Positions 1,107-27,648 of a stretch of DNA of 64,000 bases are shown here, in pieces; within the stretch, counting starts at the first letter, position 1, and the number at the start of each line of letters is the position of its first letter. The notes beneath the pieces were generated by a model. That model was given only the letters and a program-made list of their open reading frames with translations, was not told the origin of the DNA and did not search any database. This DNA comes from an uncultured Alphaproteobacteria bacterium (GTDB taxonomy: Bacteria > Pseudomonadota > Alphaproteobacteria > Bin95): contig CAXBDI010000001.1 in NCBI GenBank assembly GCA_963974445.1, positions 3,566 to 67,565 on the forward strand, given 5' to 3'. The translations under genes were made by a program, and so were the position numbers.

Positions 1107-1236
1107 GGCGGGGGAATCTCGTTTCGGAATGGTGGGCGACCGATTGCTCGCTGCTGGCGGGAATCCGCGCGACGGCGTCACTATCGCACCGGCCTCGAAC
1201 AGACCGCAAGCCTGCGGTAAATCACCGAAGATATCC

Positions 1237-1268
1237 GGTGTCACAAAAATTTCACTTTTTTGTCACGT
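1237..1268 (+). promoter_or_regulatory. Pho-box-like direct repeats (TGTCAC/TTTCAC/TGTCAC at 11-bp phase) upstream of pstS
   Basis: TGTCACaaaaaTTTCACtttttTGTCAC, three 6-mers spaced 11 bp, ~125 bp upstream of pstS start; matches PhoB-box architecture (7-bp repeats every 11 bp). Confidence 0.5.
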
Positions 1269-1392
1269 CGTTGAAGATCATCGAGCGTACGCAGCGTCGG
1301 AACGAGGTTCGGAACACCTCGTTCGTGAAATTCCTCGCTGCGCCATCCGGTTCCGATGGCTGACCGATCCGAACTTTGGAGAGTATCCCCCC

Positions 1393-2421: not shown

Positions 2422-2435
2422 ACACCCATTCGGCT

Positions 2436-2476
2436 GTAGGCGAAGCGTCCAGGCGCTTCGCCTACACCTTTTATTC
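2436..2476 (+). terminator. Intra-operon hairpin/attenuator between pstS and pstC
   Basis: GTAGGCGAAGCG-tccagg-CGCTTCGCCTAC perfect 12-bp stem followed by ACCTTTTATT; a common way to give pstS excess over pstCAB. Confidence 0.5.
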
Positions 2477-2512
2477 AGTCGATTTGTTCTCTAGTCATGC
2501 AGCGAATGTGGA

Positions 2513-3901
2513 TTGGTCTCTATGAGCGGTTTGTTTCTGGCAGGCATCGTTCTCGTGCTGGCCATGGCCGCCTATTGGTTGGGACGACGCCGGGCACTGG
2601 CGAGTGTCAGCGGCCGCATTCGCGACCTGCACTCTCTGCCGGAGTATTACGGATACTACGCTGCGGCCTGGTGCGCGATTCCGGCCTTGGCCGTGCTGAT
2701 CATTTGGAGCGTCTTTAGCGGCACTCTGGTCGAGGCGCTGGTAAAATCCTCGTTGCCAAGCACGGTCGGCTCGCTATCCGCCGATCAACTGTCGCTGTTC
2801 ATGTCCGATGTGCGCAACACTGTGACCGGCAACATCGTCTCGACGCCGACGCCGGAAGTGACCGCCGCGGCGGCGCATTATCAATCACTAGAGGCTCTCA
2901 GCCAATGGGCGCTGACGGTCGTCGGTCTGGCGCTGGCGGTGGCAGGGCTTTTATATGCCCGCCGGTCCATCGTGCCGCGCCTGCGCTCGCGCGAGCGGGT
3001 CGAGCAGGTGGTCATGGTGATCATGATCGGTGCATCGACCATCGCCATTCTGACCACCGTCGGCATCGTGCTCTCCCTGTTGTTAGAGGCGATGCGGTTC
3101 TTCGCGAAGGTGCCGATCACCGAGTTCCTGTTCGGTCTGGAATGGTCGCCGCAAACCGCAATCCGGGCCGATCAGGTTGGCTCCTCCGGTGCGTTCGGCG
3201 CAATTCCGGTGTTTGCCGGCACGCTGCTGATCACCTTCATCGCGCTCTCCGTCGCCGTCCCCATCGGTCTGCTGTCGGCGATCTACATGGCGGAATACGC
3301 CAGCCCGCGGGTGCGAGCCTTTGCCAAGCCCCTGCTGGAGATCCTGGCCGGCATCCCGACGGTCGTCTACGGGTTCTTCGCCGCGTTGACGGTGGCGCCG
3401 ATGATCCGCGGTTGGGGCGAGTCAGTTGGCCTCGACGTCAGTTCGGAATCGGCGCTGGCGGCGGGGATGGTGATGGGGATTATGATCATCCCTTTCGTGT
3501 CCTCCCTCTCCGACGACGTGATCACGGCGGTGCCGCGGGCGTTGCGCGACGGGTCTTACGGGCTGGGCGCCACCAAGTCGGAGACCATTATCCGAGTGGT
3601 CTTGCCCGCAGCATTGCCTGGCATCGTCGGCGCCGTGCTATTGGCGACCAGCCGGGCCATCGGCGAGACGATGATCGTCGTCATGGCCGCCGGCCTCGCC
3701 GCCAATCTGACCGCCAATCCGTTCGAGGCGGTGACCACCGTAACCGTGCAGATCGTGACATTGCTGGTCGGCGATCAGGAGTTCGACAGCGCCAAGACGC
3801 TGGCGGCGTTCGCGCTGGGGCTGGTGCTGTTTTTCGTCACGCTGGCGCTGAACGTGCTCGCGCTCTCGGTCGTCCGCAAATATCGAGAAAAATATGACTG
3901 A
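2513..3901 (+). CDS. pstC: Phosphate ABC transporter permease PstC
   Basis: 462-aa multi-TM ORF with ABC permease signature region (…EYASPRVRAFAKPLLEILAGIPTVVYGFF…); TTG at 2513, alternative ATG at 2522. Confidence 0.85.
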   Translation: MVSMSGLFLAGIVLVLAMAAYWLGRRRALASVSGRIRDLHSLPEYYGYYAAAWCAIPALAVLIIWSVFSGTLVEALVKSSLPSTVGSLSADQLSLFMSDVRNTVTGNIVSTPTPEVTAAAAHYQSLEALSQWALTVVGLALAVAGLLYARRSIVPRLRSRERVEQVVMVIMIGASTIAILTTVGIVLSLLLEAMRFFAKVPITEFLFGLEWSPQTAIRADQVGSSGAFGAIPVFAGTLLITFIALSVAVPIGLLSAIYMAEYASPRVRAFAKPLLEILAGIPTVVYGFFAALTVAPMIRGWGESVGLDVSSESALAAGMVMGIMIIPFVSSLSDDVITAVPRALRDGSYGLGATKSETIIRVVLPAALPGIVGAVLLATSRAIGETMIVVMAAGLAANLTANPFEAVTTVTVQIVTLLVGDQEFDSAKTLAAFALGLVLFFVTLALNVLALSVVRKYREKYD

Positions 3902-5699
3902 TGTCACTGGCAGGGCGGCTCCGCGCCGGGAGTTGAAAAAGCGTTCGACATCGGACGCCAACGTCCGCAAACGCCGAGCCCGGGAACGCCGCTTCCAGGC
4001 CTATGGGGTCGCCGCGCTGGGCTCGGCGATTGCGATGTTGGTGTTTCTGATGGTGACGATCGTCGGCAACGGCTATTCCGCCTTTTTCCAGCATGAGGTG
4101 GCGCTCAACGTCGATATCAACCGGGATCGACTGAACCTCGGTCCGTCGCCGGACGAGGACGCGCTGGCCAGAGCGTCTTATCGGCTGGTGGTCCGCGACG
4201 CCTTGAAAGCCGAGTTCGACACGGTGTCGGGGCGGCGGGAGTTGCGCACGCTCTATGGTTTCGTGTCGAACGGCGCGGATTTCGCAGTGCGCGACGCCGT
4301 ATTGGCCAATCCCGAAATCGTCGGAACCACGCAGCAAATTTGGATTAAGACATCCGACGACATCGACACTCTGCTAAAGGGTCAGATGTCGGATGTGGCG
4401 CGGTGGCAGCCGCAAAGCGCCGCCTCGGTCACCGGCACAACCGGCACTGTCACCATCACGGCGGGCGGCCAGGCTTTTGCGACCGTGCTGGAGCAGGTGA
4501 AAGCCCACTTGCAGGACGTCGCGGACGAACTGGCCGTGCGGCAAGCCCGGCTGGAAAGCATCGTCGAAGACCAGAAGGCCGCGGTTGCGGAGTTGACGCG
4601 CAGCAACTCTAACCCAGAGGAAGCCGCGCGCCTTGTGGGCGACATCGCCGCCAACGAGGCCGCCGCCAAGCAATTATCCGAGAGGATCGCCGGCCTGCGC
4701 CAGCGGGCGGCGGCTGCGGCGGGCAGTGAGGTTTTGGTCGCGGACCTGCCCAGCTATTTGGTGAAGATCAACGGCGGCCTCGTAAAGATCACCGAGGTCT
4801 CGGCTGGCGAGGCCAAGGGCGAGGCGCTGTTGCCGCTTCAACGCGGTACGCCAGCGCCGCAAGGCAGTTGGGAGATCGTGTCCTACCTGACGCCGGAGGC
4901 CGACCGCCGGGTCAAGGACATGGAAATCGCCTGGATCACCAAGCTGCAGGCGGAAGACCGGATCGAAGAGCGCTTCAACATCGCGTTTTTCCAGAACGGC
5001 GACAGCCGCGAGCCGGAGATTGCCGGCATCTGGGGCGCTGTCGTTGGCTCGTTCTTTACCCTGGTCACGACCCTGCTGATCAGCTTTCCAATCGGCGTGC
5101 TGGCGGCCGTCTATCTGGAGGAGTTCGCGCCACGCAACCGCTGGACCGACCTGATCGAGGTGAACATCAACAATCTGGCGGCGGTGCCGTCCATCGTCTT
5201 CGGGCTTTTGGGGCTCGCGGTCTTTCTGAACTTCTTCGGAATGCCGCGTTCGGCGCCGTTGGTCGGCGGCATTGTGCTGGCGCTAATGACCTTGCCGACG
5301 ATTATCATCGCCAGCCGGGCCGCTTTGAAGTCGGTGCCGCCGTCGATCCGGCAGGCGGCTTTGGGTATGGGCGCCTCGCGGCTGCAGACGATTGCGCATC
5401 ATGTGCTGCCGCTCGCGATGCCGGGCATTCTGACCGGTACGATCATCGGCATGGCCCAGGCCTTGGGCGAGACAGCGCCGCTGCTGATGATCGGCATGGT
5501 GGCGTTTATTGTCGATATTCCCGGCGGTTTCACCGATCCTGCAACGGTCATGCCGGTGCAGATTTATCTGTGGGCCGATAGTCCGGAACGCGCCTTCGTT
5601 GCCAAGACCAGTGCGGCGATCATGGTATTGTTGGCCTTCCTGATCGTGATGAATGCTATAGCGGTCGTGCTGCGCAAGCGCTTCGAGAACCGCTGGTAA
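3894..5699 (+). CDS. pstA: Phosphate ABC transporter permease PstA (long form, 601 aa)
   Basis: Start overlaps pstC stop (ATGACTGA); N-terminal TM then ~280-aa charged/coiled-coil insert, C-terminal PstA core (…EEFAPRNRWTDLIEVNINNLAAVPSIVFG…). Confidence 0.85.
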   Translation: MTDVTGRAAPRRELKKRSTSDANVRKRRARERRFQAYGVAALGSAIAMLVFLMVTIVGNGYSAFFQHEVALNVDINRDRLNLGPSPDEDALARASYRLVVRDALKAEFDTVSGRRELRTLYGFVSNGADFAVRDAVLANPEIVGTTQQIWIKTSDDIDTLLKGQMSDVARWQPQSAASVTGTTGTVTITAGGQAFATVLEQVKAHLQDVADELAVRQARLESIVEDQKAAVAELTRSNSNPEEAARLVGDIAANEAAAKQLSERIAGLRQRAAAAAGSEVLVADLPSYLVKINGGLVKITEVSAGEAKGEALLPLQRGTPAPQGSWEIVSYLTPEADRRVKDMEIAWITKLQAEDRIEERFNIAFFQNGDSREPEIAGIWGAVVGSFFTLVTTLLISFPIGVLAAVYLEEFAPRNRWTDLIEVNINNLAAVPSIVFGLLGLAVFLNFFGMPRSAPLVGGIVLALMTLPTIIIASRAALKSVPPSIRQAALGMGASRLQTIAHHVLPLAMPGILTGTIIGMAQALGETAPLLMIGMVAFIVDIPGGFTDPATVMPVQIYLWADSPERAFVAKTSAAIMVLLAFLIVMNAIAVVLRKRFENRW

Positions 5700-6554
5700 A
5701 TGGCGAGGGACTTAGACGTGAACATGACTGAAATGGCTCCGGCAGCCGCCGTCACCGGCAATTCCGACATCAGCCTGCCGATGCCCGAGCCGCTGGCCGC
5801 CCCGAAGGTGATCGCGCGCAAGGTGAATGTTTATTACAGCGGCGTTCAAGCCCTGTTCGATGTCGATCTCGATATCCTGGAACACCAGGTCACCGCGCTC
5901 ATCGGGCCGTCGGGATGCGGCAAGTCGACATTTTTGCGCTGCATCAACCGGATGAACGATGTCATCGACGGCTGTGTGACTGAGGGCGATATCCAATTGG
6001 ATGGCCGCAATATCCTCGCGCCCGGTGAGGATGTGGTGCAGTTGCGCCAGAAGGTCGGCATGGTCTTTCAGAAGCCGAACCCGTTCCCCAAGTCGATCTA
6101 CGAGAATATCGCTTACGGACCGAAGATCCACGGTCTGGCGAACGACAAGGCCGAGTTGGATGAGATCGTCGAGGTCAGCCTGGAGCGGGCCGGACTGTGG
6201 GAAGAGGTCAAGGACCGGCTGAATCAACCCGGCACCGGCCTCTCCGGCGGGCAGCAGCAGCGGCTTTGCATTGCCCGCGCCATCGCGGTCACGCCAGACG
6301 TTGTGCTGATGGACGAGCCCTGTTCCGCGCTCGACCCGATTGCCAGCGCCAAGGTGGAAGAGCTGATCGATGAACTGCGCGAGAAGTTCACCATCGTCAT
6401 CGTGACCCATTCGATGCAACAGGCGGCGCGCGTCTCGCAGCAAACCGCCTTTTTCCATCTTGGGAAACTGGTCGAGGTCGATCAGACCGAAAAGATGTTC
6501 ACCAACCCGACGGACGAGCGCACCCACGGCTACATCACCGGCCGCTTCGGTTGA
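5700..6554 (+). CDS. pstB: Phosphate import ATP-binding protein PstB
   Basis: Walker [10 protein letters not shown], signature LSGGQQQRL, Walker B VVLMDEP; PstB-specific C-terminus. Confidence 0.9.
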
Positions 6555-6621
6555 GGCCTAGCCTGTTGCCGCCGCAACCCATTAGGCTGGGCGGTTGGCT
6601 CTGGCATAGAAGGACGTTGCC

Positions 6622-7332
6622 ATGACACATGAATCTCACATCGTCAAAGCCTACACGGCGGAGATGGCGCAACTGGCGTCAATGATCGCCGAGATGGGCG
6701 GCTACTCCGAAGCGGCGATTGCGGAGGCGGTGCAGGGGCTGCGCCGGCGCGATAGCGCCCAGGCGCTGCGGGTCGTAGAGGGCGACCGGAAAATCGACGC
6801 GCTGGAGGCGCAGATTTCCGCCTTTGTCGTGCGGCTGCTGGCGTTGCGCCAGCCGATGGCGACCGACCTGCGCACCATCGTCGCCAGTCTCAAAACCGCC
6901 AGCGATCTGGAGCGGATCGGCGATTATGCCAAAAACATCGCCAAGCGCAGCCTGGTGTTGAACCGCACGCCGGTGACCGTGCCGATGGCCGGTATCGTCA
7001 ACCTCAGCCGCATGGTGGAGGCGATGCTGCATGACGTGCTGGATGCCTACGTCGCTGGCGACGCGGATGTGGCGGAGCAAATTCGCCTGCGCGACGAGGC
7101 CGTTGACGATGCCCACACCGATCTTTTCAGCGAGTTGATCAATTGCATGGTCGACGACCCGCGAACCATCTCGCCATGCACCCACCTGGTGTTCATCGCC
7201 AAGAACCTGGAGCGCATCGGCGACCACACCACCAATATCGCCGAGAATCTGGTATTCCAGGTGCGCGGCGAGCGCCTGGGCGACCGTCACGCGGCCGAGG
7301 AAGGCGAGACCGGTTTGCGGCTCGACCCATGA
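6622..7332 (+). CDS. phoU: Phosphate-specific transport system accessory protein PhoU
   Basis: 236 aa; two PhoU repeats (…DLERIGDYAKNIA… and …NLERIGDHTTNIAE…). Confidence 0.9.
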   Translation: MTHESHIVKAYTAEMAQLASMIAEMGGYSEAAIAEAVQGLRRRDSAQALRVVEGDRKIDALEAQISAFVVRLLALRQPMATDLRTIVASLKTASDLERIGDYAKNIAKRSLVLNRTPVTVPMAGIVNLSRMVEAMLHDVLDAYVAGDADVAEQIRLRDEAVDDAHTDLFSELINCMVDDPRTISPCTHLVFIAKNLERIGDHTTNIAENLVFQVRGERLGDRHAAEEGETGLRLDP

Positions 7333-7402
7333 TGGTGAGCATGGGGTGCCGCCAATCGACGGCGGGTGCTCCCTTATTGGTTGACTGCGGAGCCGGAGAG
7401 CG

Positions 7403-8113
7403 ATGAAGCCATTCATTCTGATCGTGGAAGACGACCGCCCGATTGTCGAGATGCTGCGATACAATCTGGAAGCCGCGGATTTCGACGTCGGGGTCGCAAT
7501 GGACGGCGACGAGGCGATGCTGGCTGTTGCCGAACGGCTGCCCGACCTGGTGTTGCTGGATTGGATGCTGCCCGGGATGTCCGGTCTGGAGATATGCCGC
7601 CAACTGCGGCGGCGCCGCGAAACGCGATCTCTGCCGGTTATCATGCTGACGGCGCGCGGCGAGGAGGTGGACCGGGTGCGCGGTTTGGAAAGTGGCGCCG
7701 ACGATTATGTCGTCAAGCCGTTCTCCCCCGGCGAGGTCGTGGCACGGGTGAGAGCGGTGATCCGCCGGGCGCATCCGGAGACCGATGCGGAGCAGTTGGC
7801 GTTTGCCGATGTCGAGATGGACCTGCTGTCCCATCGCGTACAACGTGCAGGGCGCAACCTGCACCTTGGCCCGACAGAGTTCCGGTTGTTACGCCATTTG
7901 ATGGAGCACCCGGGCCGTGTTTATTCGCGAGAACAACTTTTAGATGCAGTCTGGGGGCATAATGTTTACGTCGAATCCCGCACCGTCGACGTGCATATCC
8001 GAAGGCTTCGCAAGGCGTTAAATGCGGGTGGTGGCGCCGATCTAATCCGCACCGTCCGCTCTGCCGGCTATTCGCTAGACGATACTGATCCGCCCGGACG
8101 AACAAATGATTAA
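7403..8113 (+). CDS. phoB: Phosphate regulon response regulator PhoB (OmpR family)
   Basis: Receiver domain with DDxxIxE…LLDWMLPGMSG…; winged-helix C-terminus (…ESRTVDVHIRRLRKAL…); follows phoU. Confidence 0.9.
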   Translation: MKPFILIVEDDRPIVEMLRYNLEAADFDVGVAMDGDEAMLAVAERLPDLVLLDWMLPGMSGLEICRQLRRRRETRSLPVIMLTARGEEVDRVRGLESGADDYVVKPFSPGEVVARVRAVIRRAHPETDAEQLAFADVEMDLLSHRVQRAGRNLHLGPTEFRLLRHLMEHPGRVYSREQLLDAVWGHNVYVESRTVDVHIRRLRKALNAGGGADLIRTVRSAGYSLDDTDPPGRTND

Positions 8114-14286: not shown

Positions 14287-14462
14287 TGCGCAAGCCTTTT
14301 GTGTCAGAGGCGGTATAGATTCCGATCCTAACCATGACTTTCTTTAGGATGGAGTTAACGTTTCCTAGAGGCGCCCCGGTTGAGACTTCTGTATCGGCAA
14401 TGGGCGCTCATGATTTATTCAATAATTGCCGTCTAAGATGGGCAGTCGCGTAACCTGTACGT

Positions 14463-16963: not shown

Positions 16964-17443
16964 TTAGCGGTCCTGCTTTAGGAAATCGCTGATCAGCACG
17001 GCGTTGACCGAATCGCCGATGATCTCCCTGGCGGCGTTAAGCAGGCGTCCGCGCAATTCCGTTTGCGTATCCGGCGCGAATATGTCCTGCGAAAACGCCC
17101 CTTCGGCAGCCATATTGAACAGGATTTTCAGGAAGGCGTCGCGGACGCGAGGCTCGCGCCTGAACGCCTGTTCGGTCGTTCCGTCGGCAAGCTCCAACTG
17201 CAAATTGGCAACGATCAGGCCGCTAACTTGTCCATTCGACTGCACCGGAATGACGAATTGCGAATTGAATTTGAAGTATTCGAACGTCGTCGGCGTCGAT
17301 GGGCGCGCGGATTTCATCAGGGCATCGGCCTCGCCCTGATGGTCGCCGCCCTTGCCTAGCAGGACGCCCGCGACGGCGCCGCCACCAAGTGCCAGAATTC
17401 CGGCAATCGCGATCACTAAGGGTTTCATAGGCATGCCTTCCAA
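16964..17443 (-). CDS. fliL: Flagellar basal body-associated protein FliL
   Basis: 159 aa; N-terminal TM (LVIAIAGILALGGGAVAGVLL) then FliL-like periplasmic domain (…FEYFKFNSQFVIPV…); alternative starts at 17434/17428. Confidence 0.75.
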   Translation of the reverse strand: MEGMPMKPLVIAIAGILALGGGAVAGVLLGKGGDHQGEADALMKSARPSTPTTFEYFKFNSQFVIPVQSNGQVSGLIVANLQLELADGTTEQAFRREPRVRDAFLKILFNMAAEGAFSQDIFAPDTQTELRGRLLNAAREIIGDSVNAVLISDFLKQDR

Positions 17444-17452
17444 CTCATCTGC

Positions 17453-18190
17453 CTAAAACGGCAATACGCGGTCCAGCACTTGCTGGCCGTAGCGCGGCTG
17501 TTGCAGGTCGGTGATCTGGCCACGGCCGCCATAGACCACCCGCGCCTCCGCAATTTTCTCATAGCTGATCGTGTTTTGCCGCGAGATATCCTCCGGGCGG
17601 ACGACGCCGGATACCTGCAGGTCGCGCAGTTCGAAGTTCACCCGCACCTCCTGGCTGGCATAGATCACCAGATTGCCGTTCGGCAGCACGTCGGTCACCG
17701 TGGCGGCGACCTTTAATTCGATGGTCTCCTCGCGGCTCACCGAGCCGGTACCGCCGCTTGCGGAGTTGCTGTTGGCCGCGACCAGGGTCGAGACGTCGGC
17801 GGCGTTCGGCAAAATGCGCTGAATTTGCTGCTCGAACCCAAGTAGATTTGGCACGCCCAGGCTTTCGTTAGCAGTGCGGCTGCGGTTGGTGCTATTGTCG
17901 ATTTGCGCCTTGTCATTGATTTCGACCGTCACCGTGAGGATATCGCCGACGGTCCGGGCGCGGCGGTCGCCGAACAGCGAGCGCGGCCCCGATTGCCAGA
18001 GCGACGCCGTGGTCGCCGGCCGGTCGATAGGCTTTGGCGGGACGTTCATTGCCGCCGCCGCCGGCGCAGCGATGCGCGTGCGCGACTCGCCGGCAGGCGA
18101 CATCGTCGGCTCTTTACCCAGATGGTCCAGGTTGCTGCAGGCGCCCAGGCCGAGCGCAACCAAGACGGAGAGCGCGTTACGAACCGACAT
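17453..18190 (-). CDS. flgH: Flagellar L-ring lipoprotein FlgH
   Basis: ORF to 18220; start 18190 gives lipoprotein signal MSVRNALSVLVALGLGAC; FlgH core (…DILTVTVEINDKAQ…, …NGNLVIYASQEVRVN…). Confidence 0.85.
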   Translation of the reverse strand: MSVRNALSVLVALGLGACSNLDHLGKEPTMSPAGESRTRIAAPAAAAMNVPPKPIDRPATTASLWQSGPRSLFGDRRARTVGDILTVTVEINDKAQIDNSTNRSRTANESLGVPNLLGFEQQIQRILPNAADVSTLVAANSNSASGGTGSVSREETIELKVAATVTDVLPNGNLVIYASQEVRVNFELRDLQVSGVVRPEDISRQNTISYEKIAEARVVYGGRGQITDLQQPRYGQQVLDRVLPF

Positions 18191-18653
18191 CGACGGTCTC
18201 CGGGCCGGCGATGCGGCCATAGATCGTGCGGCGGGAATCCAGGTTCATCACCCGGATGATCTGGCCCATGCCGCCTTGCTCCAACGCCCGGCCGACCGTG
18301 GTGAGTACAATAGCGCCCTGGCGGAACCGCAGGATGACGCGGGCATTACGTTCGACCAGGGTGATGGGGCCGATCTCCAACTGGCGGATGGGGCGGTCCG
18401 GATACAGGCTGCGCTGCGCCTCCTTGCCGACCACCGCTGCGAGCGATTGCAGGACGTCGGCGGCGGGCCGTAGTGGCACCGGCTTCAGGGCGACATCGCC
18501 GGCGGCGATCACCGTGCCGACCGGAATGGTGCGGGTCGGCGTCACGACCTGCGGTCCGGCTGGCTTAGCCGGTTCCGCCGCCACAGCCGCCCCGCCTGCC
18601 AACCCGATGCAGGCAATGGCGATGGCGGGCAGCATGCGGAATCCTCGGCGCAC
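18177..18653 (-). CDS. flgA: Flagellar P-ring assembly chaperone FlgA
   Basis: 158 aa, signal peptide; …IAAGDVALKPV… and C-terminal …GMGQIIRVMNLDSRRTIYGRI… typical of FlgA; overlaps flgH start by 14 nt. Confidence 0.7.
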   Translation of the reverse strand: MRRGFRMLPAIAIACIGLAGGAAVAAEPAKPAGPQVVTPTRTIPVGTVIAAGDVALKPVPLRPAADVLQSLAAVVGKEAQRSLYPDRPIRQLEIGPITLVERNARVILRFRQGAIVLTTVGRALEQGGMGQIIRVMNLDSRRTIYGRIAGPETVDVGS

Positions 18654-18655
18654 GG

Positions 18656-19441
18656 CTATCGGACCTGGTTGGCCGCGGCCAGCATCTGGTCGGATGCAGT
18701 AATCACCTTGGAGTTCATTTCATAGGCCCGCTGGGCTTCGATGAGCTGGGTGATTTCTGCCACGATATCCACCGACGATTGCTCCAGATAGCCTTGGCGC
18801 ATGGAGCCGCGGCCCTCGGTGCCGGCATCGCCGACCTGTGCGTTGCCGCTGGCCAGCGTGGCGGTGAACAGGTTGCTGCCCCGCGCCTCCAGCCCCTTTT
18901 CGTTGATGAAGGTCGCCAGCGTGATCTTGCCCAGTTCCTGCGGCACCTGATTGTTGTCGAAATTCGCAAAGACCTGACCGTCCGCATTGATACTGATGCT
19001 GCGGGCGTCGACCGGCACGGTGATCTGCGGCACCAGGGGATAGCCCTCGGACGTGACGATCAGACCGTCTGCCGATAATTTCAGGCTGCCGTCGCGGGTG
19101 TAGGCGCTGTCGCCGGAGGGCAGTTCCACCTCGAACCAGCCGCGGCCCTCCAGCGCGATGTCGAACTCGCCGTTGGTCTGGCGCAGCGTGCCTTGGGCCG
19201 ATTGCATCGAGACCGCCGACGTCCGCGTGCCGAGGCCCAGTTGAATGCCGGCGGGCACAACGGTTCCGGTGTCCGACGAGACGTCGCCGGCCCGCTGCGC
19301 CTGCTGGTACAGCAGGTCGGCGAACTCGGCCCGGCGCATGCTGTAGCCGGTGGTGCCGACGTTGGCGATATTGTTGGCGATAACCTCGACCCGGGTTTGC
19401 TGGGCCAGCATGCCGGTAGCGGCGATTTCAAGTGCGCGCAT
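18656..19441 (-). CDS. flgG: Flagellar basal-body rod protein FlgG
   Basis: 261 aa; N-terminal MRALEIAATGMLAQQTRVEVIANNIANVGTTGY and C-terminal …EITQLIEAQRAYEMNSKVITASDQML… rod-protein motifs. Confidence 0.9.
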   Translation of the reverse strand: MRALEIAATGMLAQQTRVEVIANNIANVGTTGYSMRRAEFADLLYQQAQRAGDVSSDTGTVVPAGIQLGLGTRTSAVSMQSAQGTLRQTNGEFDIALEGRGWFEVELPSGDSAYTRDGSLKLSADGLIVTSEGYPLVPQITVPVDARSISINADGQVFANFDNNQVPQELGKITLATFINEKGLEARGSNLFTATLASGNAQVGDAGTEGRGSMRQGYLEQSSVDIVAEITQLIEAQRAYEMNSKVITASDQMLAAANQVR

Positions 19442-19484
19442 GGCGTTCGAGCCTCCTTCTTGCGATGGATGATGGTGGGATGGT

Positions 19485-20225
19485 CTAAGCGGTGTTGCCG
19501 ACGATGTCGGTGACGCTGGTGATACGGTCGTGTTCCGCCTGCAAAACGTTCTGCCCCAGTTCGTAGGCCCGCTGGATCTCGATCATCCGAACCAGTTCAA
19601 CCACCGGATTGACGTTGGACGTTTCGAGAAAGCCTTGCGCGAACCGCGGCCGTTGAATAGCGATCAGCGGCGGTTGAACGGCGGGCAGCGGCTCGTCGGT
19701 GCGGAACAGGCCATTGCCGATACGCTCCAGCCGCGCCGCCTGCGTGTCGAACAACCCCAACTGGCCAATGGTACGGCCGTCGGCGGAGAGCGTTCCATCG
19801 GCGGCGATGGCGATCCGGGTGGCGTTCTGCGGTATTTGCACGGGCGCGCCGCCCGCATCCAGCACCCGTTCGCCGGTCAGCAGCGCAAGCTCGCCGGCGG
19901 GGTTGACTGCGAAGCGGCCGTCGCGGGTGTAGACTGTCTCGCCATCGCGATCGACCGCGATCAGGCCCCGCCCCAGAATAGCGACGTTCAAGGGATCGCC
20001 TGTTTCCGCGATGCTGCCCTCGCTCATGTCGGTAAAGGTCGCCGGGTCCGAACTCATCGAGAGCTTTTGGCCGGATTCCGGCAGTCGCTCGATCACCTCC
20101 GCGAACAGCGTGCCTTCGCGCTTGAAGCCCGTGGTGCTGGAGTTGGCGATATTATTGGCGACCACGTCCATCTGGCGTTGCAAAGCGGTCTGGCGGGCGA
20201 TGGTGACATAGACGGAATTTTCCAT
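19485..20225 (-). CDS. flgF: Flagellar basal-body rod protein FlgF
   Basis: 246 aa; …VTIARQTALQRQMDVVANNIANSSTTGFKRE… and C-terminal …MIEIQRAYELGQNVLQ…. Confidence 0.85.
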   Translation of the reverse strand: MENSVYVTIARQTALQRQMDVVANNIANSSTTGFKREGTLFAEVIERLPESGQKLSMSSDPATFTDMSEGSIAETGDPLNVAILGRGLIAVDRDGETVYTRDGRFAVNPAGELALLTGERVLDAGGAPVQIPQNATRIAIAADGTLSADGRTIGQLGLFDTQAARLERIGNGLFRTDEPLPAVQPPLIAIQRPRFAQGFLETSNVNPVVELVRMIEIQRAYELGQNVLQAEHDRITSVTDIVGNTA

Positions 20226-20232
20226 TACGGCC

Positions 20233-22821
20233 TCACGATCCGGGCGAAGGGGCTGGAAACAACTGGCTGACCTGCTGGCTGCGGGTCAGCACCGCCGATA
20301 TGACATCGGGAAGGGTTAAATTGTCCGGAAGAGGCGGCGCATTCAGAGCCGCTGCGGCATCGCCGAAACCGGCCGCGGCGGCGATCTGCATGGCCCGTCC
20401 GGCCTGGTTACCCAATGGTTCGGTGCCGCCCGCCATGTAACCGGCTGCCAGCGCCCGCAGCGCGACATCGCCGTCGCCGGGCTTCAGGTCTTGGCTGTCG
20501 ATAGTGGCCAGCGCGGTCCGATAGGCCGCCGCGGTGCGGCTCCAGTCGCCGTTGGCCCACAGCAGTCCGGCGGCTATTTCAGCCGCTCGCCCTGGATTTT
20601 CCGGCTTGTCCATTGCAACTGCGGCGGCGTCGGCATAGCGGCCCAACTGCGCCAGTGCCCGACGGCGCAGATCGGCGGTTGGCTGATCGCCGGCCTCGGC
20701 TTTGTCCAACGTCGCCAGCGCTTCCGCAGGATAGCCGGCGCGCAGGCGGGCTTCGGCCAGCATCGTCTGCAACCGGGGATCCGCCTCGGGTTTTGCCGCC
20801 ATCGACGCGACGATGCGCTCGGTCACGGAAGGCAGCCCGGCCGCCAGCATGCGCGACGCCATATGCTTGAGAATGGCCTGGCTGTCGCGGTCTTCGGCCA
20901 ATTGGTGACGATAGTCGGTGTAGAGTTGCAGCGCCGTGGCGTCATCGACGGCGCCGGGCTTCAGCAACGCCTTCTTTAGAAGCGCCCGGGTCTTGGCGTC
21001 GACCGGGGCACGGCTGACCGACTCCGGCAGCCGCTGCGCTGCGCCGCGCAGCTCTTCGAGTGCGGTGGCGACATCGCCGCTGGCCGCGTGCAGATCGGCC
21101 GCCAGCAACGCGACCGGCAACAGGCGTGAGTCGCCGCGGTAGTCGAACAAAGCGCCGCGGACGGCGTCCTTCGCCCAGTCTGGCGGTGGCTCGCCCTTGG
21201 CCAAGGCGTCCTCGATTAGTGCCAGCCGCGCCAGCCGCCGATTTTCCGGCGCACCTTCGATCGCTTGCGACAGATACCAATTCGCCCGGTCCTTCTGCCC
21301 GAGCAGCAGCGCCAGCCGGCCTTGCAGTAAGGCGATCCTGTCAGCGACCGCCTGGGCGGGGGCTGGGTCCGGCGCATCCAGAAACTGGCTCGCAAGGTCT
21401 GCGTCGGCCTGATACAACGCCATCTCCGCCAATTGCAGGGCCAGGACGGTTCGGGGATGCTGCGCGAACTGGGCGAGCGGAAGGACCGCCTCCTTGGCCG
21501 CCCGCGCTGCCAGCCCGCCGAAGCCGTGTGCGTTCAGCAACGCCGCCCGCCAGACTGCGATATCGCGGCGGCAGGGATCTTCGCGCAGCAGCGCATCGCC
21601 CGCCTCCTGACCGCGGCCCAGCAGAATGAGAACGGCATCGACGAGCGCCGGCGATGGCGTGTTGCCGGCGGATAGATAGGCCAGCGCCTCCTGCGTCAGT
21701 CCGTGCGAGAGGTAAAACATCGCCATCTGGCTGACGGCCGCGACACGCTCCAACCCGATGAGCGCCGCGCGCTGGGCGCCGATGGCCCGGGAGAAGTTGT
21801 CACCGCGCCGGTCGATCGCATTCCAGTCGATCAGCGGCGGCTGTATCTGGCCCTCGCAAACCCATGCCGTTGTGTCGATCGGTAACAGGGGCGATGCCAT
21901 GGCGGCGTCTGCTGCGACAGGGCTGTCGGCACGGCTGGGCGGCGGATCGGCTGCGGGTTGCGGTTTGGGTTGCGGCGCGACCTGCACATTCGTGATGTTG
22001 GCAGGCGGCTTGTCGCCGTCCGTGGCGGGCTGTTCGGCATCGGCCTCGCCCGGCCGCTTCATGAAGCCGTGGCGCGCCGCCCATTCCAGCGATTGCCGCA
22101 GCTTGCTGATCTCGTCGGCTGCCAGGGTTCCGTCGGCGGGCGGAGTGAAGCGGGCGGTCGCCGCGGCAGTCTCGTCGCCCGTTGCCGGACCGGGCCGCGG
22201 GGCATTCGAGGGGGCGCCGTCGCCCCCGCTTTGCCCGGCGATTGCCGAGCCATCGTCGGGCCGACGGCCGGCTGGGCGTGGCCGCGGAAAGGGGCCCGCG
22301 ATAGCCGCTATTTGTGCCGCCGGGCCGGCCAGTGACGCGGGCGGCGGTTGCGGTGCTGCGTTTGCGGCTGCCCGTGCCGGGGTGGCGGAGGACGTGGCCT
22401 CGGCTGGTTTGACGGCCTCTTTGTCCCGAACTTCCACCAGCACCCGCTGATTGGCGTCGAGTGCGATGGAGGCGGCGCAATCGCAGGTGAAGCGCAAAGC
22501 GAAGGCCGCGCCATTCGGCCGGTCTTCCGGTCCGGCGAAGGTGATGCGGCTGGCCCGGCGGCGCGGATAGACCTCGTCGAACGCAAACCTGATGTTGGCG
22601 CCCGGGAACAGCACCGTTATCTGGCGGTCGGATTGCTCCACCCTGAAACCGCCGGTGGGCGTGAAGTTGAACGCGACGCGCGAGCTTGCGCCGACATCGC
22701 CGGCGCTGACCCTGACCAGCGTGGACCGGCCGTCTTCGGGCTCCGCCGCAATCGATGGCGCAGCGCAGAACAGACTTGCTGCGATCCAAAGGCCGGCCAG
22801 TGCGAACGGATATCCCAGCAT
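20233..22821 (-). CDS. Large secreted TPR-like/Ala-Pro-rich protein embedded in the motA-flgF operon (uncharacterised)
   Basis: 862 aa; signal peptide MLGYPFALAGLWIAASLFCAAPSIAAEP; ~120-aa beta-rich N-domain, ~170-aa Pro/Ala linker, ~500-aa Ala/Leu-rich helical repeats; 3-nt gap to motA stop and 7-nt gap to flgF start. Confidence 0.55.
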   Translation of the reverse strand: MLGYPFALAGLWIAASLFCAAPSIAAEPEDGRSTLVRVSAGDVGASSRVAFNFTPTGGFRVEQSDRQITVLFPGANIRFAFDEVYPRRRASRITFAGPEDRPNGAAFALRFTCDCAASIALDANQRVLVEVRDKEAVKPAEATSSATPARAAANAAPQPPPASLAGPAAQIAAIAGPFPRPRPAGRRPDDGSAIAGQSGGDGAPSNAPRPGPATGDETAAATARFTPPADGTLAADEISKLRQSLEWAARHGFMKRPGEADAEQPATDGDKPPANITNVQVAPQPKPQPAADPPPSRADSPVAADAAMASPLLPIDTTAWVCEGQIQPPLIDWNAIDRRGDNFSRAIGAQRAALIGLERVAAVSQMAMFYLSHGLTQEALAYLSAGNTPSPALVDAVLILLGRGQEAGDALLREDPCRRDIAVWRAALLNAHGFGGLAARAAKEAVLPLAQFAQHPRTVLALQLAEMALYQADADLASQFLDAPDPAPAQAVADRIALLQGRLALLLGQKDRANWYLSQAIEGAPENRRLARLALIEDALAKGEPPPDWAKDAVRGALFDYRGDSRLLPVALLAADLHAASGDVATALEELRGAAQRLPESVSRAPVDAKTRALLKKALLKPGAVDDATALQLYTDYRHQLAEDRDSQAILKHMASRMLAAGLPSVTERIVASMAAKPEADPRLQTMLAEARLRAGYPAEALATLDKAEAGDQPTADLRRRALAQLGRYADAAAVAMDKPENPGRAAEIAAGLLWANGDWSRTAAAYRTALATIDSQDLKPGDGDVALRALAAGYMAGGTEPLGNQAGRAMQIAAAAGFGDAAAALNAPPLPDNLTLPDVISAVLTRSQQVSQLFPAPSPGS

Positions 22822-22824
22822 CGG

Positions 22825-23706
22825 TTATGCCGCCAACGGCACGACGCCGCTTTTGACGGCGTCCAGTGCTTCTTCGATTTCCAGGAAGGATGGCTGGACA
22901 TGCGCCGGGACGCTCTTCCGCCCGACCTCAATGCAAATATTTGGCTGATGCCGGTTCAGATACGCGACAAAGACGTCGCGGATCAGGTTATAGAAACGCG
23001 CTTCTTCCTCGTGGATCGCTCGTATTCTGGCGGCGAGCGGGCCGACGACGCCGTATGACAGAAATACACCCAAAAACGTGCCGACCAATGCGCCGCCGAT
23101 CATTTTGCCCAGAATTTCCGGCGGTTGGTCGATGGAGGCCATGGTCTTGATCACACCCATCACCGCGGCGACGATGCCCAACGCCGGCAGGCCGTCGGCC
23201 ATTGTTTGCAGTGCGGTGGATGTCGCAAGAATCTCTTCGTGATGCTTGTCCAGATCGCGGCCCATGACATCGTCGAGTTGATGCGGGTTGTCGAAACTCA
23301 TACCGACCGCGCGCAGATAGTCGCAGATCATGCCGATGGCATGATGATCGTGCAAAATATTCGGGTAGCGATTGAAGATGGTGGAATCGTGGGGGTTTTC
23401 GATATGCGATTCGACCGCCATGGGGTTGGCGCGGCTCAGGCGCACCAACTCGAACAGCAAGCAGAGCAAGGCCGTATAATCCGCCTTCTTCCACTTGGCG
23501 CCCTTCAGCGCCTTGCCCAGGTCCTTGCCCGTTTGTTTGAGGACGGTGACGCCGTTCGCGATCATGTAAGCGCCAATTGCGGCGCCGCCGATGATCAGGA
23601 ACTCGAAGGGCAAGGCTTTCATGATGATATCGAGCTTGCCGCCGGCCGCTACATAGCCGCCGAACACACTTCCCAGCACCACCATCACGCCGATGATCGG
23701 CAGCAT
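22825..23706 (-). CDS. motA: Flagellar motor stator protein MotA
   Basis: ORF to 23736; start 23706 (MLPIIGVMVVLGSVFGGY…); four TM segments and conserved C-terminal plug/helix region of MotA. Confidence 0.85.
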   Translation of the reverse strand: MLPIIGVMVVLGSVFGGYVAAGGKLDIIMKALPFEFLIIGGAAIGAYMIANGVTVLKQTGKDLGKALKGAKWKKADYTALLCLLFELVRLSRANPMAVESHIENPHDSTIFNRYPNILHDHHAIGMICDYLRAVGMSFDNPHQLDDVMGRDLDKHHEEILATSTALQTMADGLPALGIVAAVMGVIKTMASIDQPPEILGKMIGGALVGTFLGVFLSYGVVGPLAARIRAIHEEEARFYNLIRDVFVAYLNRHQPNICIEVGRKSVPAHVQPSFLEIEEALDAVKSGVVPLAA

Positions 23707-23811: not shown

Positions 23812-24651
23812 TCATTTTTGGCGCACGGCGCTGGATTTACCGGCCAGCAACAGGCTGATCGCATAGGCGTTTTGCGGCTCCATGTTTGCCATGATTTGCG
23901 CAGAACTGTTTTGGCGCATCCTGCGGACGAAGCCGGCACCGATTTCCGGCGGCATCTGGTCGAAGATCAGGGCCGCCTGTTTCGGTTTCATTTTCTCGTA
24001 GATCGAAACCAGTTGCATCGCCTCCTCCTCCGCCACGGCTCCCGCCTTACCGAACGCTGACTCCAACGCGGACTGTTGGCGGGCCAGTTCCCCGAGTTGG
24101 GCCGCGACGCGCTTTTCCGTCACTTCCAATTCGCGCCGGCGGGTATCCAGGCGCATGGCCATGGCCGAGAGTTCCTGCTCGCGCTCCAGCGCTGCGGCGA
24201 GGAACGCGCCATCGATACAGCGCTTGTCGTCATTCATGCCGCTCACGCCCATAGATTTCCCCGACGGGAGCATTTCGGGCGAGGCCGTGCCGGACTCGCC
24301 GGCCGTCACTGGCGGCGGCGTTTTTGCAGCGGCTTCGGGGCCGGTCGGCGCTTCGGCATCGCTGCCGTTGGCCGGCATGGCTTGCACAGCGTCTTGCGGC
24401 ACCGATGCGGCAATATCGCCGGGGTTGGTGTCGCTGGCTGCATAGGCGCTGCTTGAGAGGGCATCGGCAATCTCTTGGCGGAGGCCGTTCGCCCGCAGAA
24501 CCGCGGAGGCGAGGAAAATGCAGGCGATGAGATAGAGCGCGCTGGAGCTACGCTGCCTGGCCCGGCGCGCCAGTTGTGCGATACGTGGGGCGGTCGTGCC
24601 GGTTTTGGCGGAAGCGCGGCGGTTAGGGCGCTGGGTCGGTGTGTCAGTCAC
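23812..24651 (-). CDS. MotE/FlbB-like flagellar protein (C-terminal MgtE_N-like domain)
   Basis: 279 aa; N-terminal TM, Pro/Ala-rich spacer, coiled coil, C-terminal …LVSIYEKMKPKQAALIFDQMPPEIGAGFVRRM… resembling the MgtE_N domain of MotE/FlbB-type proteins. Confidence 0.45.
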   Translation of the reverse strand: MTDTPTQRPNRRASAKTGTTAPRIAQLARRARQRSSSALYLIACIFLASAVLRANGLRQEIADALSSSAYAASDTNPGDIAASVPQDAVQAMPANGSDAEAPTGPEAAAKTPPPVTAGESGTASPEMLPSGKSMGVSGMNDDKRCIDGAFLAAALEREQELSAMAMRLDTRRRELEVTEKRVAAQLGELARQQSALESAFGKAGAVAEEEAMQLVSIYEKMKPKQAALIFDQMPPEIGAGFVRRMRQNSSAQIMANMEPQNAYAISLLLAGKSSAVRQK

Positions 24652-25282
24652 TCACCGCCCTCTCACTCACCGCCGCAGCGCTGCCATTGAGATGGCGCGA
24701 GCGCATCGGCATGACATCCGGCAGCGGGTCCTCCCCAGCGCCGCCCATCCCGACACCAGCCTCGGCTTGACCCTGCATCACGGCTTCCAGCAGCAATATC
24801 TCGGTTTCGTCTTCGTAGTAGCGCGGACAAGATGCCTGATCTGGGGATGCCTCGAACCCGTCCGCCGCCGTATCGGCATCCGCAGTCTGGCCGGCCTGCC
24901 GGCGGCTGTCTCTGGCCGCGTTGACGGCACTCCGCAGGTGGCCGATGATCTGGCGGGCATCGGTTAATTTTCGATCCAGAACCGCCAATTGGTCCGTGCC
25001 ATCCTCCAGAAGGGCGGCAGTACGCTCGGCGATGGCGCGTGCTTCCTGCAAATGCTGCTCCAGCGCTTCCGACTCGGTTCGAGCCGCTGCCCGTGTCTGG
25101 CTGAGGCTGGAGTTGAGCCGCTCTACCGCCTTCACCATGTCGGCGACGCCCTTGCCGACACCCTGGTCGGCGCTGGCCAGTCGGCGGACGCGGCGCGACA
25201 GCACGATGCAGTAGAAGCACGCGGTCAAGCTGGCGGACAATAACCCGCCGTCGACCAGAATATTCAACGCATCCATAATCAC
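24644..25282 (-). CDS. Hypothetical membrane-anchored coiled-coil protein (flagellar cluster)
   Basis: 212 aa; N-terminal TM (MIMDALNILVDGGLLSASLTACFYCIVL) then predicted coiled coil; 8-nt overlap with downstream gene. Confidence 0.4.
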   Translation of the reverse strand: MIMDALNILVDGGLLSASLTACFYCIVLSRRVRRLASADQGVGKGVADMVKAVERLNSSLSQTRAAARTESEALEQHLQEARAIAERTAALLEDGTDQLAVLDRKLTDARQIIGHLRSAVNAARDSRRQAGQTADADTAADGFEASPDQASCPRYYEDETEILLLEAVMQGQAEAGVGMGGAGEDPLPDVMPMRSRHLNGSAAAVSERAVSD

Positions 25283-25354: not shown

Positions 25355-25852
25355 TTAGCGCAGCAGAAACTCCGCGATCAGCACCGCTTTCACCGCCTCA
25401 TCGCCGGTCACCAACCGCACCCGGCGTAGCATCTCGGCCCGCAGCCGCTCCATCGCCAGGATCGATGAGACATCGCGCTCGTCCACCGCCCGCAAAAAAA
25501 TGTTCAGCGTATCGACAATCCGCGGTTCCGCTTGCCGGACGCTCTCGGCGGACTTGGGGTCGATTTCCAGGTGCAGTTTCGTGCGCAGGAACTGCGCCGT
25601 GGCGCCACCGCCCAGCGGGATGGTGAATTCCGGCAGGCTGTGAAACGTCGGCGGTGTTTGGTTGATATTTTTGGTGTCCTGTTGCGGGTCGAGGTTGTCG
25701 GCATCGCTTTGGCCGACGAAGGGGATGGGGATCAGGCCCATCATCCCAGCGGCAAACCCGCCGCCGCCGCCCAGGACGATGACGGCCAGCAACACGATAA
25801 GCCCTTTTGCGCCGCCCTTTTTGGGAGGCCCTTCGGCAACGACTTCTGTCAA
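25355..25852 (-). CDS. FliL-like flagellar basal body-associated protein (second paralog)
   Basis: 165 aa; TM (LIVLLAVIVLGGGGGFAAGMMGL) then …FHSLPEFTIPL… and …LHLEIDPKSAE…, the FliL-family pattern. Confidence 0.5.
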   Translation of the reverse strand: MTEVVAEGPPKKGGAKGLIVLLAVIVLGGGGGFAAGMMGLIPIPFVGQSDADNLDPQQDTKNINQTPPTFHSLPEFTIPLGGGATAQFLRTKLHLEIDPKSAESVRQAEPRIVDTLNIFLRAVDERDVSSILAMERLRAEMLRRVRLVTGDEAVKAVLIAEFLLR

Positions 25853-26010
25853 GGTACACCTACCCGCCTTTTCTTGTGTTTGGCGGACAATACAGCCGGC
25901 ACCTAAACGGGTTATTAATCTAACTAAATCACGATCTTGGTGGATGCTTTATAGAAGCAGCAGGTCCTGATGGATCAACCTGTAGCCAATCTAGCCAGAA
26001 GGCGGTTCGA

Positions 26011-27648
26011 GTGAGCATGGAACGGCTCGTCGAAAATTTGCAGAAGCTTGGAGCCGGGCGCCTTGTAGCGCTCGGCCTCGGCGTGGCTGCAACCATTGCG
26101 GTGGTCGGATTCCTTGCCATTTCCACGACCCGGCCTGATTTCGCACCGCTGTATTCCGGGCTCGACGCGAAGTCCGCCGGCGAAATCGCGGCGCGTCTGG
26201 ATAGTCTGGGCATTCCCTACGAGGTCTCGGGCACCACTCTGCTGGTGCCGGCTATGGCGCGCGACCGGGCGCGCATGACCCTGGCGGGGGAGGGGCTGCC
26301 GCGTCAAGGCCAGGCCGGATACGAACTGCTCGACAATCTGGATGGCTTCGGCGTCACCGCCGATATGTTCGACGCGACCTACTGGCGGGCGAAGGAGGGC
26401 GAGCTGGCTCGCACCATCACCGCGCTCGACAATGTGCAAAGCGCCCGCGTTCATATCGCTCGGCCCACCCGCACCGCCTTTTCGCGCGAGCGTGTGGCGC
26501 CGTCGGCCTCCGTTGTCGTGACCACCGGCAGCGGCGCGCAGCTGAGCCGGCGGCAGGCATTCGCCGTCCGTCATATCGTCGCGCTCGCGGTTAAAGCGCT
26601 CGATCCCGGCCGGGTGACGGTGATCGACAGTTTCAACGGCCTGGTGCTCGGCCCGGACGAGGGCGAGGACGGCATGAGCGCCGACGACGCCCGCATCGCG
26701 CGGGAGGCGCGCATCCGCAGCGAGTTGGAGGCTCTGCTGAGTGCTCATGTCGGCGCTGGGCGAGTGCGCGTCAGCGTGGCGGTGGAGACCGACAACGAAA
26801 CCGAGTCCGTCACCGAACGGGTATTCGATCCCGAAGGCCGCGTCGCTATCCATAGCGACACGACCGAATCCTCGGAAAATACAGTCGAGCCGGCTGACGG
26901 CGGCGCCGAGGGCGCGGTCGGTGTCGGCGGCAACTTGCCGGAGGGGCAGGGGCAAGGCGGCGGGGCGGCCGGTTCCAGCCAAAAAACCAGCACCAAGGAA
27001 CGGGTCAACTACGAAGTGTCGGAAGTTCGGCGCGAGCGGCGCAAGCTGGCCGGCGCGATCAAGCGAATTTCCGTTGCCGTGCTGGTCGATGGTACGCTGG
27101 CGACCGATGCGAACGGCGAGACTGCCTGGCAGCCGCGTTCGGCTGAGGATCTGGATACCATCGGCAAGCTGGTGCGCTCGGCCATCGCATTCGATGCGGA
27201 GCGCGGCGATGTCGTCACCGTCGAAAACCTGCAATTCGCCATTTCCGCCCAGGACGAGACCACCCCGGCGAACAGCGGCCTGTTAGGCGCATTTGCCGGA
27301 AACCTGGTCGATTTGGTCGAGATATTGGGGCTCGTCGCTATCGTTGCGCTGCTGATGTGGTTCGTGGTTCGGCCACTGACCAGCGGCCGGGCGTTCGAAT
27401 CGCCGGCGGACGAACCGCTGGCCCTGCCCGAGCGCGAGGCGGCGGACGCCGGCGACGACCCGGCGGAGGAAGCTGACGACGCCGAGTTCACCGAGGCCGC
27501 CAATGAAGATAGCGGCCCGATCGAAGCATTGCCTGCCAACAACAGCCACGTGGCGCGCCTGCACACTGTCGTCGACGATCACCCGGACGAATCCTTCGCG
27601 CTCATCCGCAAATGGCTGCACGAGACCGATGAGGAGGAGGCGGCATGA
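26011..27648 (+). CDS. fliF: Flagellar M-ring protein FliF
   Basis: 545 aa; N-terminal TM, …LDSLGIPYEVSGTTLLVPAMARDRARMTLAGEGLP…, C-terminal TM and acidic tail; GTG 26011 or ATG 26017. Confidence 0.9.
   Translation: MSMERLVENLQKLGAGRLVALGLGVAATIAVVGFLAISTTRPDFAPLYSGLDAKSAGEIAARLDSLGIPYEVSGTTLLVPAMARDRARMTLAGEGLPRQGQAGYELLDNLDGFGVTADMFDATYWRAKEGELARTITALDNVQSARVHIARPTRTAFSRERVAPSASVVVTTGSGAQLSRRQAFAVRHIVALAVKALDPGRVTVIDSFNGLVLGPDEGEDGMSADDARIAREARIRSELEALLSAHVGAGRVRVSVAVETDNETESVTERVFDPEGRVAIHSDTTESSENTVEPADGGAEGAVGVGGNLPEGQGQGGGAAGSSQKTSTKERVNYEVSEVRRERRKLAGAIKRISVAVLVDGTLATDANGETAWQPRSAEDLDTIGKLVRSAIAFDAERGDVVTVENLQFAISAQDETTPANSGLLGAFAGNLVDLVEILGLVAIVALLMWFVVRPLTSGRAFESPADEPLALPEREAADAGDDPAEEADDAEFTEAANEDSGPIEALPANNSHVARLHTVVDDHPDESFALIRKWLHETDEEEAA

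Follow-up and report, generated by a model that had tools for sequence, protein, structure and literature searches.

A gene directly behind motA in an alphaproteobacterial fla2-type operon likely encodes a divergent MotK/FssB-type (PflA-like) periplasmic stator accessory protein

Within a 64,000-nt stretch of contig CAXBDI010000001.1 from an uncultured Alphaproteobacteria bacterium (hereafter, the window), we analyzed an 862-aa protein, labeled X together with its gene (20233-22821, minus strand), that is encoded in a flagellar operon between motA and flgF. We interpret X as likely representing a MotK/FssB-type (PflA-like) periplasmic accessory protein of the alphaproteobacterial fla2-type motor that works by the mechanism proposed below; that it acts in the periplasm as a motor component associated with the stators is very probable. 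The order fliL, pflI-like, motE-like, motA and X seen in the window is the published order of the Fla2 operon, and X would belong to a known kind of component. A preliminary description of the same DNA had put X forward as a candidate new flagellar component; its position and domain plan had already been published as MotK (PMC10954123) and FssB/CC_2058 (PMC7885107), and X is probably a divergent addition to the known MotK/FssB (PflA-like) family rather than a new kind of component. Directly observed here are the gene itself, its tight coupling to motA and flgF, the fold classes of its product, its conservation, and a constant stator and E-ring gene neighborhood.

The Fla2 operon of Cereibacter sphaeroides reads fliL2-pflI-motE-motA2-motK (PMC10954123, 2024), and its last product, MotK (RSWS8N_12065, UniProt Q3IY86), is a 652-aa protein with a signal peptide, proline-rich disordered regions and a tetratricopeptide repeat (TPR)-like helical region, whose N-terminus of ~100 residues was modeled with eight strands on the AMIN domain of AmiC (PMC10954123). 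Cells of the motK deletion carry flagella and are paralyzed, and MotK binds MotE and MotB2; the same authors point to large genes for periplasmic proteins with an AMIN-like N-terminus that lie behind motA or motE in members of the Paracoccaceae, Roseobacteraceae and Caulobacteraceae (PMC10954123). X resembles MotK in its Sec signal, its N-terminal beta domain (nine strands versus eight in MotK), its proline-rich disorder, its TPR-like region and its place as the last stator-related gene of a fliL-pflI-motE-motA operon. The taxonomic spread is also alike, as the MotK family follows motA in Paracoccaceae and Roseobacteraceae and the X family likewise does so in Paroceanicella, a Paracoccaceae metagenome-assembled genome (MAG) and Roseovarius. 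Unlike MotK, X is 862 rather than 652 aa long with a much longer linker (~190 aa), and the window operon continues into flgF-flgG-flgA-flgH-fliL. The Mot- phenotype and the binding of MotE and MotB2 have, of the two, been established for MotK. The second characterized relative, FssB of Caulobacter crescentus (CC_2058 / CCNA_02137, UniProt Q9A6M9), is a secreted TPR protein needed for stator activity, whose deletion leaves cells flagellated but paralyzed (PMC7885107, 2021). FssB, too, is encoded in a fliL-fliM-pflI-CC_2059 (motE) neighborhood, an order in which long forms of the X family occur, and X lies two genes from an MgtE_N-like gene whose product has an N-terminal transmembrane (TM) helix as reported for CC_2059. 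The arrangement differs in that the Caulobacter gene directly follows motE with motA elsewhere, whereas in the window motA stands in between.

Reading the junctions directly in the sequence, we found the X gene (862 codons from an ATG start, called from the open reading frame (ORF) list, the family profile and the conserved position behind motA) to be packed tightly on both sides. Between the motA stop codon (TAA, 22825-22827) and the X ATG at 22821 stand only the 3 nt 'ccg', and between the X stop codon (TGA, 20233-20235) and the flgF ATG at 20225 stand the 7 nt 'ggccgta'; both spacings are as the preliminary description gave them. The minus-strand gene order is fliL, DUF6468, MgtE_N-like, motA, X, flgF, flgG, flgA, flgH and fliL2, with intergenic gaps of at most 105 nt, and a promoter and terminator scan of the operon returned nothing at gene boundaries; the location of X in a tightly packed flagellar operon is supported. 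Upstream of X lie motA (22825-23706, minus strand; 293 aa from the ATG of the public gene call; TIGR03818, 363 bits), a motE/flgY-type gene (23812-24651, minus strand; 279 aa), a pflI-like DUF6468 gene (24644-25282, minus strand; 212 aa, DUF6468 at E 2.6e-4, with a TM helix and a coiled coil) and fliL (25355-25852, minus strand; PF03748, E 9e-13), the first gene of the putative operon, which is divergent from fliF (26011-27648, plus strand).

The protein reads as four consecutive parts, which we located on an AlphaFold2 model built from a 55-sequence alignment (mean predicted local distance difference test, pLDDT, of 81.8) that replaces a model from a two-sequence alignment (pLDDT 55). First comes a predicted Sec signal peptide (residues 1-26, 22744-22821, minus strand) with a hydrophobic core and an IAA-E cleavage motif: the N-terminus reads MLGYPFALAGLWIAASLFCAAPSIAA, followed by cleavage before EP, and the model places a hydrophobic helix at residues 4-19. 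Typical signal peptides were likewise seen on inspection of the sequences of X family members, and X would thus be exported by Sec and be periplasmic, its signal peptide being judged from sequence. Next is a 9-strand, beta-sandwich-like N-domain (residues 34-133, 22423-22722, minus strand; block pLDDT 84-95 except for one block of 76 at residues 81-90) that bears the family-invariant residues R48, R92, C113 and C115, the last two forming a CxC motif. A Pro/Ala-rich, mostly disordered linker follows (residues 137-330, 21832-22413, minus strand; 23% Ala and 18% Pro; pLDDT below 50 at 137-228 and 259-299), and finally a TPR-like solenoid of ~29 helices in ~14 repeats (residues 341-855, 20257-21801, minus strand; helices at about 341-852 in the model, block pLDDT mostly above 90), which carries the invariant E378 and C417. 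The signal peptide, beta N-domain, Pro/Ala linker and helical TPR-like repeats that the preliminary description had read from the sequence are thus all recovered, the signal peptide from sequence and the remainder in the model. It had also been right that X is not MotB: we ruled out X as a MotB-like stator anchor, no OmpA or MotB_plug match being present in X.

Embedded in the linker is a conserved amphipathic helix (residues 235-252, LRQSLEWAARHGF, 22066-22119, minus strand; helix at 235-250 in the model, block pLDDT 71-84). In an alignment conservation scan, no 8-column stretch of the family is more conserved than one within this helix, which reads WAARHGF in X with a consensus of RAA.QGL, and the helix aligns with high confidence to the Paroceanicella protein described below. 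The linker of PflA binds PflB, and by analogy this helix may serve for docking, a speculative suggestion. Four cysteines, the CxC of the beta domain and two at the solenoid start, are invariant in 55 of 55 aligned members; C113, C115, C322 and C417 fall at window positions ~22483-22485, 22477-22479, 21856-21858 and 21571-21573, respectively, and in the model DSSP assigned isolated strand or bridge residues at positions 327 and 418, adjoining C322 and C417. These cysteines may, again speculatively, form periplasmic disulfides.

X belongs to a sizable family. A word-index search with X returned a full-length homolog (P0002, 48% identity) that is also encoded directly after motA, and a family profile built from X and this one close relative was run in an exhaustive HMMER search of 1.84 billion proteins, revealing 320 cluster representatives at E of 1e-3 or below and 99 at E of 1e-10 or below. 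Most of these representatives are 750-1200 aa long, their matches covering the N-domain and the solenoid collinearly, and seven residues (R48, R92, C113, C115, C322, E378 and C417) are invariant across 55 aligned members. Homologs at 41-48% identity fill the same slot in related MAGs (L008-L011), which are the four nearest loci, all from unclassified Alphaproteobacteria MAGs, with MotA 86% identical to that of the window; judged by these identities (86% for MotA against 41-48% for X in the nearest MAGs), X is evolving far faster than the stator protein MotA. Word-index searches with X alone, with the 55-sequence profile and with the family member P0153 gave 2, 11 and 14 matches, respectively, and returned no named MotK or FssB, with low-complexity words probably swamping candidates.

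We give next to no chance to a reading in which a generic TPR protein, or an artifact of annotation, came to lie in a flagellar operon by accident. No curated family matches X, the protein is Ala/Pro-rich, and in DNA of 56-75% local GC long spurious ORFs are common, such as a 419-aa ORF antisense to fliF; set against this are the full-length homologs in the same slot of several MAGs, a 320-member family with seven invariant residues, a confident fold, and ten of ten contexts that are flagellar. Conservation and synteny together effectively refute the reading of X as a spurious ORF, and X is a real, conserved gene.

Those ten family-member contexts (the contig of X itself counted) were all flagellar, with the gene beside motA, motE or motB, so that orthologs lying mainly outside flagellar loci, the finding named beforehand as one that would speak against a flagellar role, were not seen in any context examined. 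The order (fliL)-(pflI-like)-(MgtE_N)-motA-X recurs in five relatives (P0002, P0007, P0013, P0014 and P0153) and in the public contig of X. Two long forms of 1148 and 1220 aa (L029 and L030) instead sit in the Caulobacter-type order fliL-fliM-DUF6468-motE-X, where in L030 cheY and cheZ intervene between motE and X, and two distant members (L032 and L033, the latter at 2872-6107) directly follow motB-like genes, which is the MotC-type position. In L032 (6438-7001; 7001-9424) a 158-aa ORF of its own, immediately ahead of the TPR gene, holds the N-domain (hidden Markov model independent E-value 7e-4), a pattern suggestive of an architecture that is split or frameshifted.

Seeding a genome scan with the window MotA yielded 20 loci, half of which (10/20) carry a further X-family gene immediately after motA, including loci from Roseovarius, Hyphomonas and Paracoccaceae MAGs; no X-family gene was found next to motA in the MotA-seeded loci of Tagaea, Henriciella, a Sphingomonadaceae MAG and a Caulobacterales MAG. 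Locus L017 (JAYGHB010000002.1) is labeled as the cyanobacterium Halotia wernerae UHCC 0503, and its motA is 52% identical to that of the window with a score indistinguishable from those of the Tagaea (Alphaproteobacteria) loci; this is probably a contaminant contig. Searching plasmids with tblastn matched a single record, plasmid pD4M1D of Paroceanicella profunda D4M1 (Paracoccaceae), on which all eleven genes recur in an identical order, with the counterpart of X being the 883-aa WP_138578638.1, labeled "hypothetical protein". The N-domains of X and WP_138578638.1 are 29-30% identical (E 1e-14 in pairwise BLASTP and 3e-6 against 7.3 Gb), and a comparison of this protein with the X profile aligned 647 columns at 99.1% probability (E 8e-19). 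Next after the unclassified MAGs, the nearest MotA is that of Roseovarius at 64% identity. The locus is collinear with a Paracoccaceae fla2-type cluster and has its nearest stator sequences in unclassified Alphaproteobacteria (86%) and then Roseovarius, a placement that leaves the Rhizobiales framing of the preliminary description unsupported.

What follows X in these loci bears on whether the protein could serve the rod or the P/L rings, as an assembly or scaffold factor, which was the alternative offered beforehand. Such a role would suit the 7-nt spacing to flgF and the run of flgFGAH-fliL that follows X in the window and, in the same order, in L008, L009, L011, L013, L014 and L031. In four Roseovarius- and Paracoccaceae-type loci (L004, L006, L012 and L015), however, the operon stops after X, with flgFGAH elsewhere or on the opposite strand; the invariant neighbors are motA, motE or motB and not ring genes; and the characterized relatives build complete filaments. 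We therefore rejected a P/L-ring scaffold role, as the flgFGAH neighborhood is not conserved, and regard a rod or ring factor as highly unlikely. The earlier proposal of a periplasmic scaffold around the stator or the P/L rings accordingly survives in its stator part, which is the best reading of X, and falls in its ring part, since operons of relatives end after X without flgFGAH.

Taking up the stator-associated reading again, the neighborhood of X also holds a candidate for its ring partner. The product of the motE/flgY-type gene at 23812-24651, an E-ring candidate whose position is kept in relatives, combines an N-terminal TM helix, a coiled coil and a C-terminal MgtE_N-like domain (MgtE_N at E 1.2e-4, below cutoff), and MgtE_N-type genes occupy the motE-like slot in relatives too. 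The published criteria for MotE/FlgY/CC_2059 E-ring proteins agree with this product, down to the additional TM segment that CC_2059 is reported to have; no Pfam family is assigned to it in public gene calls. In the literature, MotK, MotC, CC_2058 and spirochaete FlcB are treated as structural homologs of PflA by Feng and colleagues and in a 2026 review, and MotE, CC_2059, FlbB and FlgY, with a C-terminal MgtE_N-type domain, are taken there as the E-ring protein that these homologs bind (PMC11870540; PMC13023049). PflA of Campylobacter jejuni has an N-terminal beta-sandwich, an unstructured linker and a 16-TPR superhelix, and forms radial spokes that position stators (PMC12222027). X has the same predicted plan as PflA of C. 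jejuni and Helicobacter pylori, with signal peptide, beta-sandwich, unstructured linker and TPR superhelix (~14 repeats versus 16), and PflA partners the FlgY E-ring and scaffolds stators as the spokes of the proximal disk (PMC12222027, PMC12054838). The PflA beta-sandwich binds PflB, whereas that of MotK is proposed to bind peptidoglycan; a further difference from the PflA system is that the window showed no PflB, PflC, PflD or FlgP partner. At the level of structure, a Foldseek comparison of X with chain K of 9HMF (a C. jejuni scaffold model, 773 residues; protein identity of the chain unconfirmed) aligned 942 columns at E 1.3e-4 with a TM score of about 0.2, the longest alignment among the matches listed and long enough to span both domains.

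From these parallels we propose the following mechanism. X would be exported by Sec to the periplasm, as its characterized relatives suggest, where its TPR solenoid would form a radial periplasmic arm with two binding partners, namely the membrane-anchored ring protein of MotE/FlgY type whose gene lies two genes upstream (23812-24651) and the periplasmic portion of MotB. The beta domain at the N-terminus would anchor this assembly to peptidoglycan or to a partner, and the assembly would recruit MotA/MotB stator units and keep them active and unplugged around the rotor, such that loss of X would leave cells flagellated yet paralyzed.

A rival reading takes X to be a soluble periplasmic MotB regulator of the MotC type that is stabilized by a MotE chaperone and switches stators on rather than serving as a fixed spoke. 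In Sinorhizobium meliloti, MotE is described as the chaperone of the TPR protein MotC, encoded after motB (PMC13023049); some X-family members directly follow motB-like genes; and purified basal bodies lose stator-associated proteins (PMC10954123). MotC is a periplasmic, TPR-rich protein that rotation requires and that depends on MotE, and some X-family members are placed after motB as motC is, a likeness drawn from descriptions; it differs from MotK in having no N-terminal AMIN-type domain (PMC13023049), and in Rhizobiaceae motE lies between flgI and flgH, unlike in the window. We nonetheless hold a soluble regulator to be unlikely, given that MotE-sfGFP is found at the flagellar structure independently of MotK and stators, that FlgY and PflA form a visible ring and spokes in situ, and that a folded beta domain, a long linker and a 14-repeat solenoid are more in keeping with an architectural element than with a diffusible factor. 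The earlier statement that X is not MotC stands at the level of detectable sequence, although the published view relates MotC to MotK and some family members occupy a motC-like position behind motB.

An upstream neighbor raises one further alternative, in which X would be a polar positioning or landmark protein on the FimV/HubP-type plan (a peptidoglycan-binding domain plus TPR) that places rather than powers the flagellum. The adjacent DUF6468 gene resembles PflI, which is implicated in Caulobacter flagellar positioning, and the N-domain may be AMIN-like, AMIN domains being known to localize periplasmic complexes. Deletion of fssB or motK causes paralysis and not misplacement, however, and the tight coupling of X is to stator genes, leaving this reading a very slim chance. 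As for the gene itself, 24644-25282 sits in the position of pflI, a Caulobacter flagellar positioning gene, and in L029 and L030 this slot likewise holds DUF6468.

Several results weigh against the interpretation of X as a MotK/FssB-type stator accessory protein. Its homology to the characterized MotK and FssB is one that we infer from operon position, domain plan, the taxonomic families named in the papers and intermediate sequences, X having been compared with MotK (Q3IY86), FssB (Q9A6M9) and MotC by description, operon and intermediates rather than by direct alignment; the MotK authors themselves reported no BLAST similarity between MotK and CC_2058 (PMC10954123). X reached no Pfam or NCBIfam threshold, its top match being TPR_14 at E 0.0016, and X itself gave no AMIN (PF11741) or AMIN-like (PF24837) match at E of 10 or below. 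A profile of the N-domain compared by hhalign with the AMIN domain of Escherichia coli AmiC was negative (1.8% probability). Among family N-domains, 6 of 10 gave sub-threshold matches to AMIN-like (PF24837) or AMIN (PF11741) at E 0.002-0.18, with the best score among relatives being 18.4 bits against a gathering cutoff of 27, and we interpret the X N-domain as the counterpart of the AMIN-like domain of MotK, with an AMIN nature that is weakly supported. Comparing the X profile with sequences in the Protein Data Bank recovered only generic TPR proteins and no PflA-level sequence similarity, and X alone recovered nothing; in Foldseek, 9HMF chain K ranks below many generic TPR proteins. Finally, the proposed MotB partner is not seen here, as phmmer with two MotB sequences from related loci found no motB in the 64-kb window, and the motB of this motor must therefore lie outside it.

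Beyond X, the window holds a flagellar cluster (~10178-31455) that is flanked on one side by pstSCAB-phoU-phoB (937-8113) and on the other by a PCMT-domain gene and an outer-membrane efflux (OEP) gene. Directly downstream of X, flgF, flgG, flgA, flgH and a second fliL paralog (16964-20225, minus strand) follow with gaps of at most 43 nt; FlgF was called by TIGR02490 (183 bits versus a cutoff of 178.5), and curated models also matched FlgG, FlgA, FlgH and the FliL paralog. This second paralog (16964-17443, minus strand) and the FliL at 25355-25852 (minus strand) bracket the eleven-gene operon, and the same FliL pair occurs in L008, L009, L011, L013, L014 and the Paroceanicella plasmid, recalling the FliL/MotF pair of S. 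meliloti. The fla2 system of C. sphaeroides is CtrA-dependent. Scanning the window for the CtrA box TTAA-N7-TTAA gave no perfect match and three one-mismatch sites versus 2.06 expected, which is not significant; one-mismatch boxes lie at 25904-25918, in the divergent intergenic region between fliF and fliL, and at 14344-14358, upstream of fliK. The 419-aa ORF antisense to fliF (25975-27234, minus strand) has no family match and is a spurious long ORF typical of GC-rich DNA.

More broadly, the X family may unite by sequence three groups whose only link to date is predicted structure: the MotK-type proteins encoded after motA in Rhodobacterales, the FssB-type proteins encoded after motE in a Caulobacter-like order, and the proteins in the MotC position after motB. 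These would constitute one alphaproteobacterial family of more than 300 clusters, defined by previously undescribed features (an invariant CxC in the beta domain, C322 and C417 at the solenoid base, and the amphipathic linker helix L..L.RAA.QGL) that would be the docking or disulfide-locking elements of the stator scaffold. We offer this unification tentatively, as an idea that is more apt to fail than to hold.

The value of these findings lies in annotation rather than in a new kind of motor component. Members of this family are publicly labeled "hypothetical protein" (e.g., WP_138578638.1) and are not covered by Pfam or NCBIfam models, and the label of a MotK/FssB-type stator scaffold names a gene without which many alphaproteobacterial motors of the fla2 type probably could not rotate. 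The family profile, the seven invariant residues and the linker helix represent concrete targets for mutagenesis in C. sphaeroides, Caulobacter and Paroceanicella.

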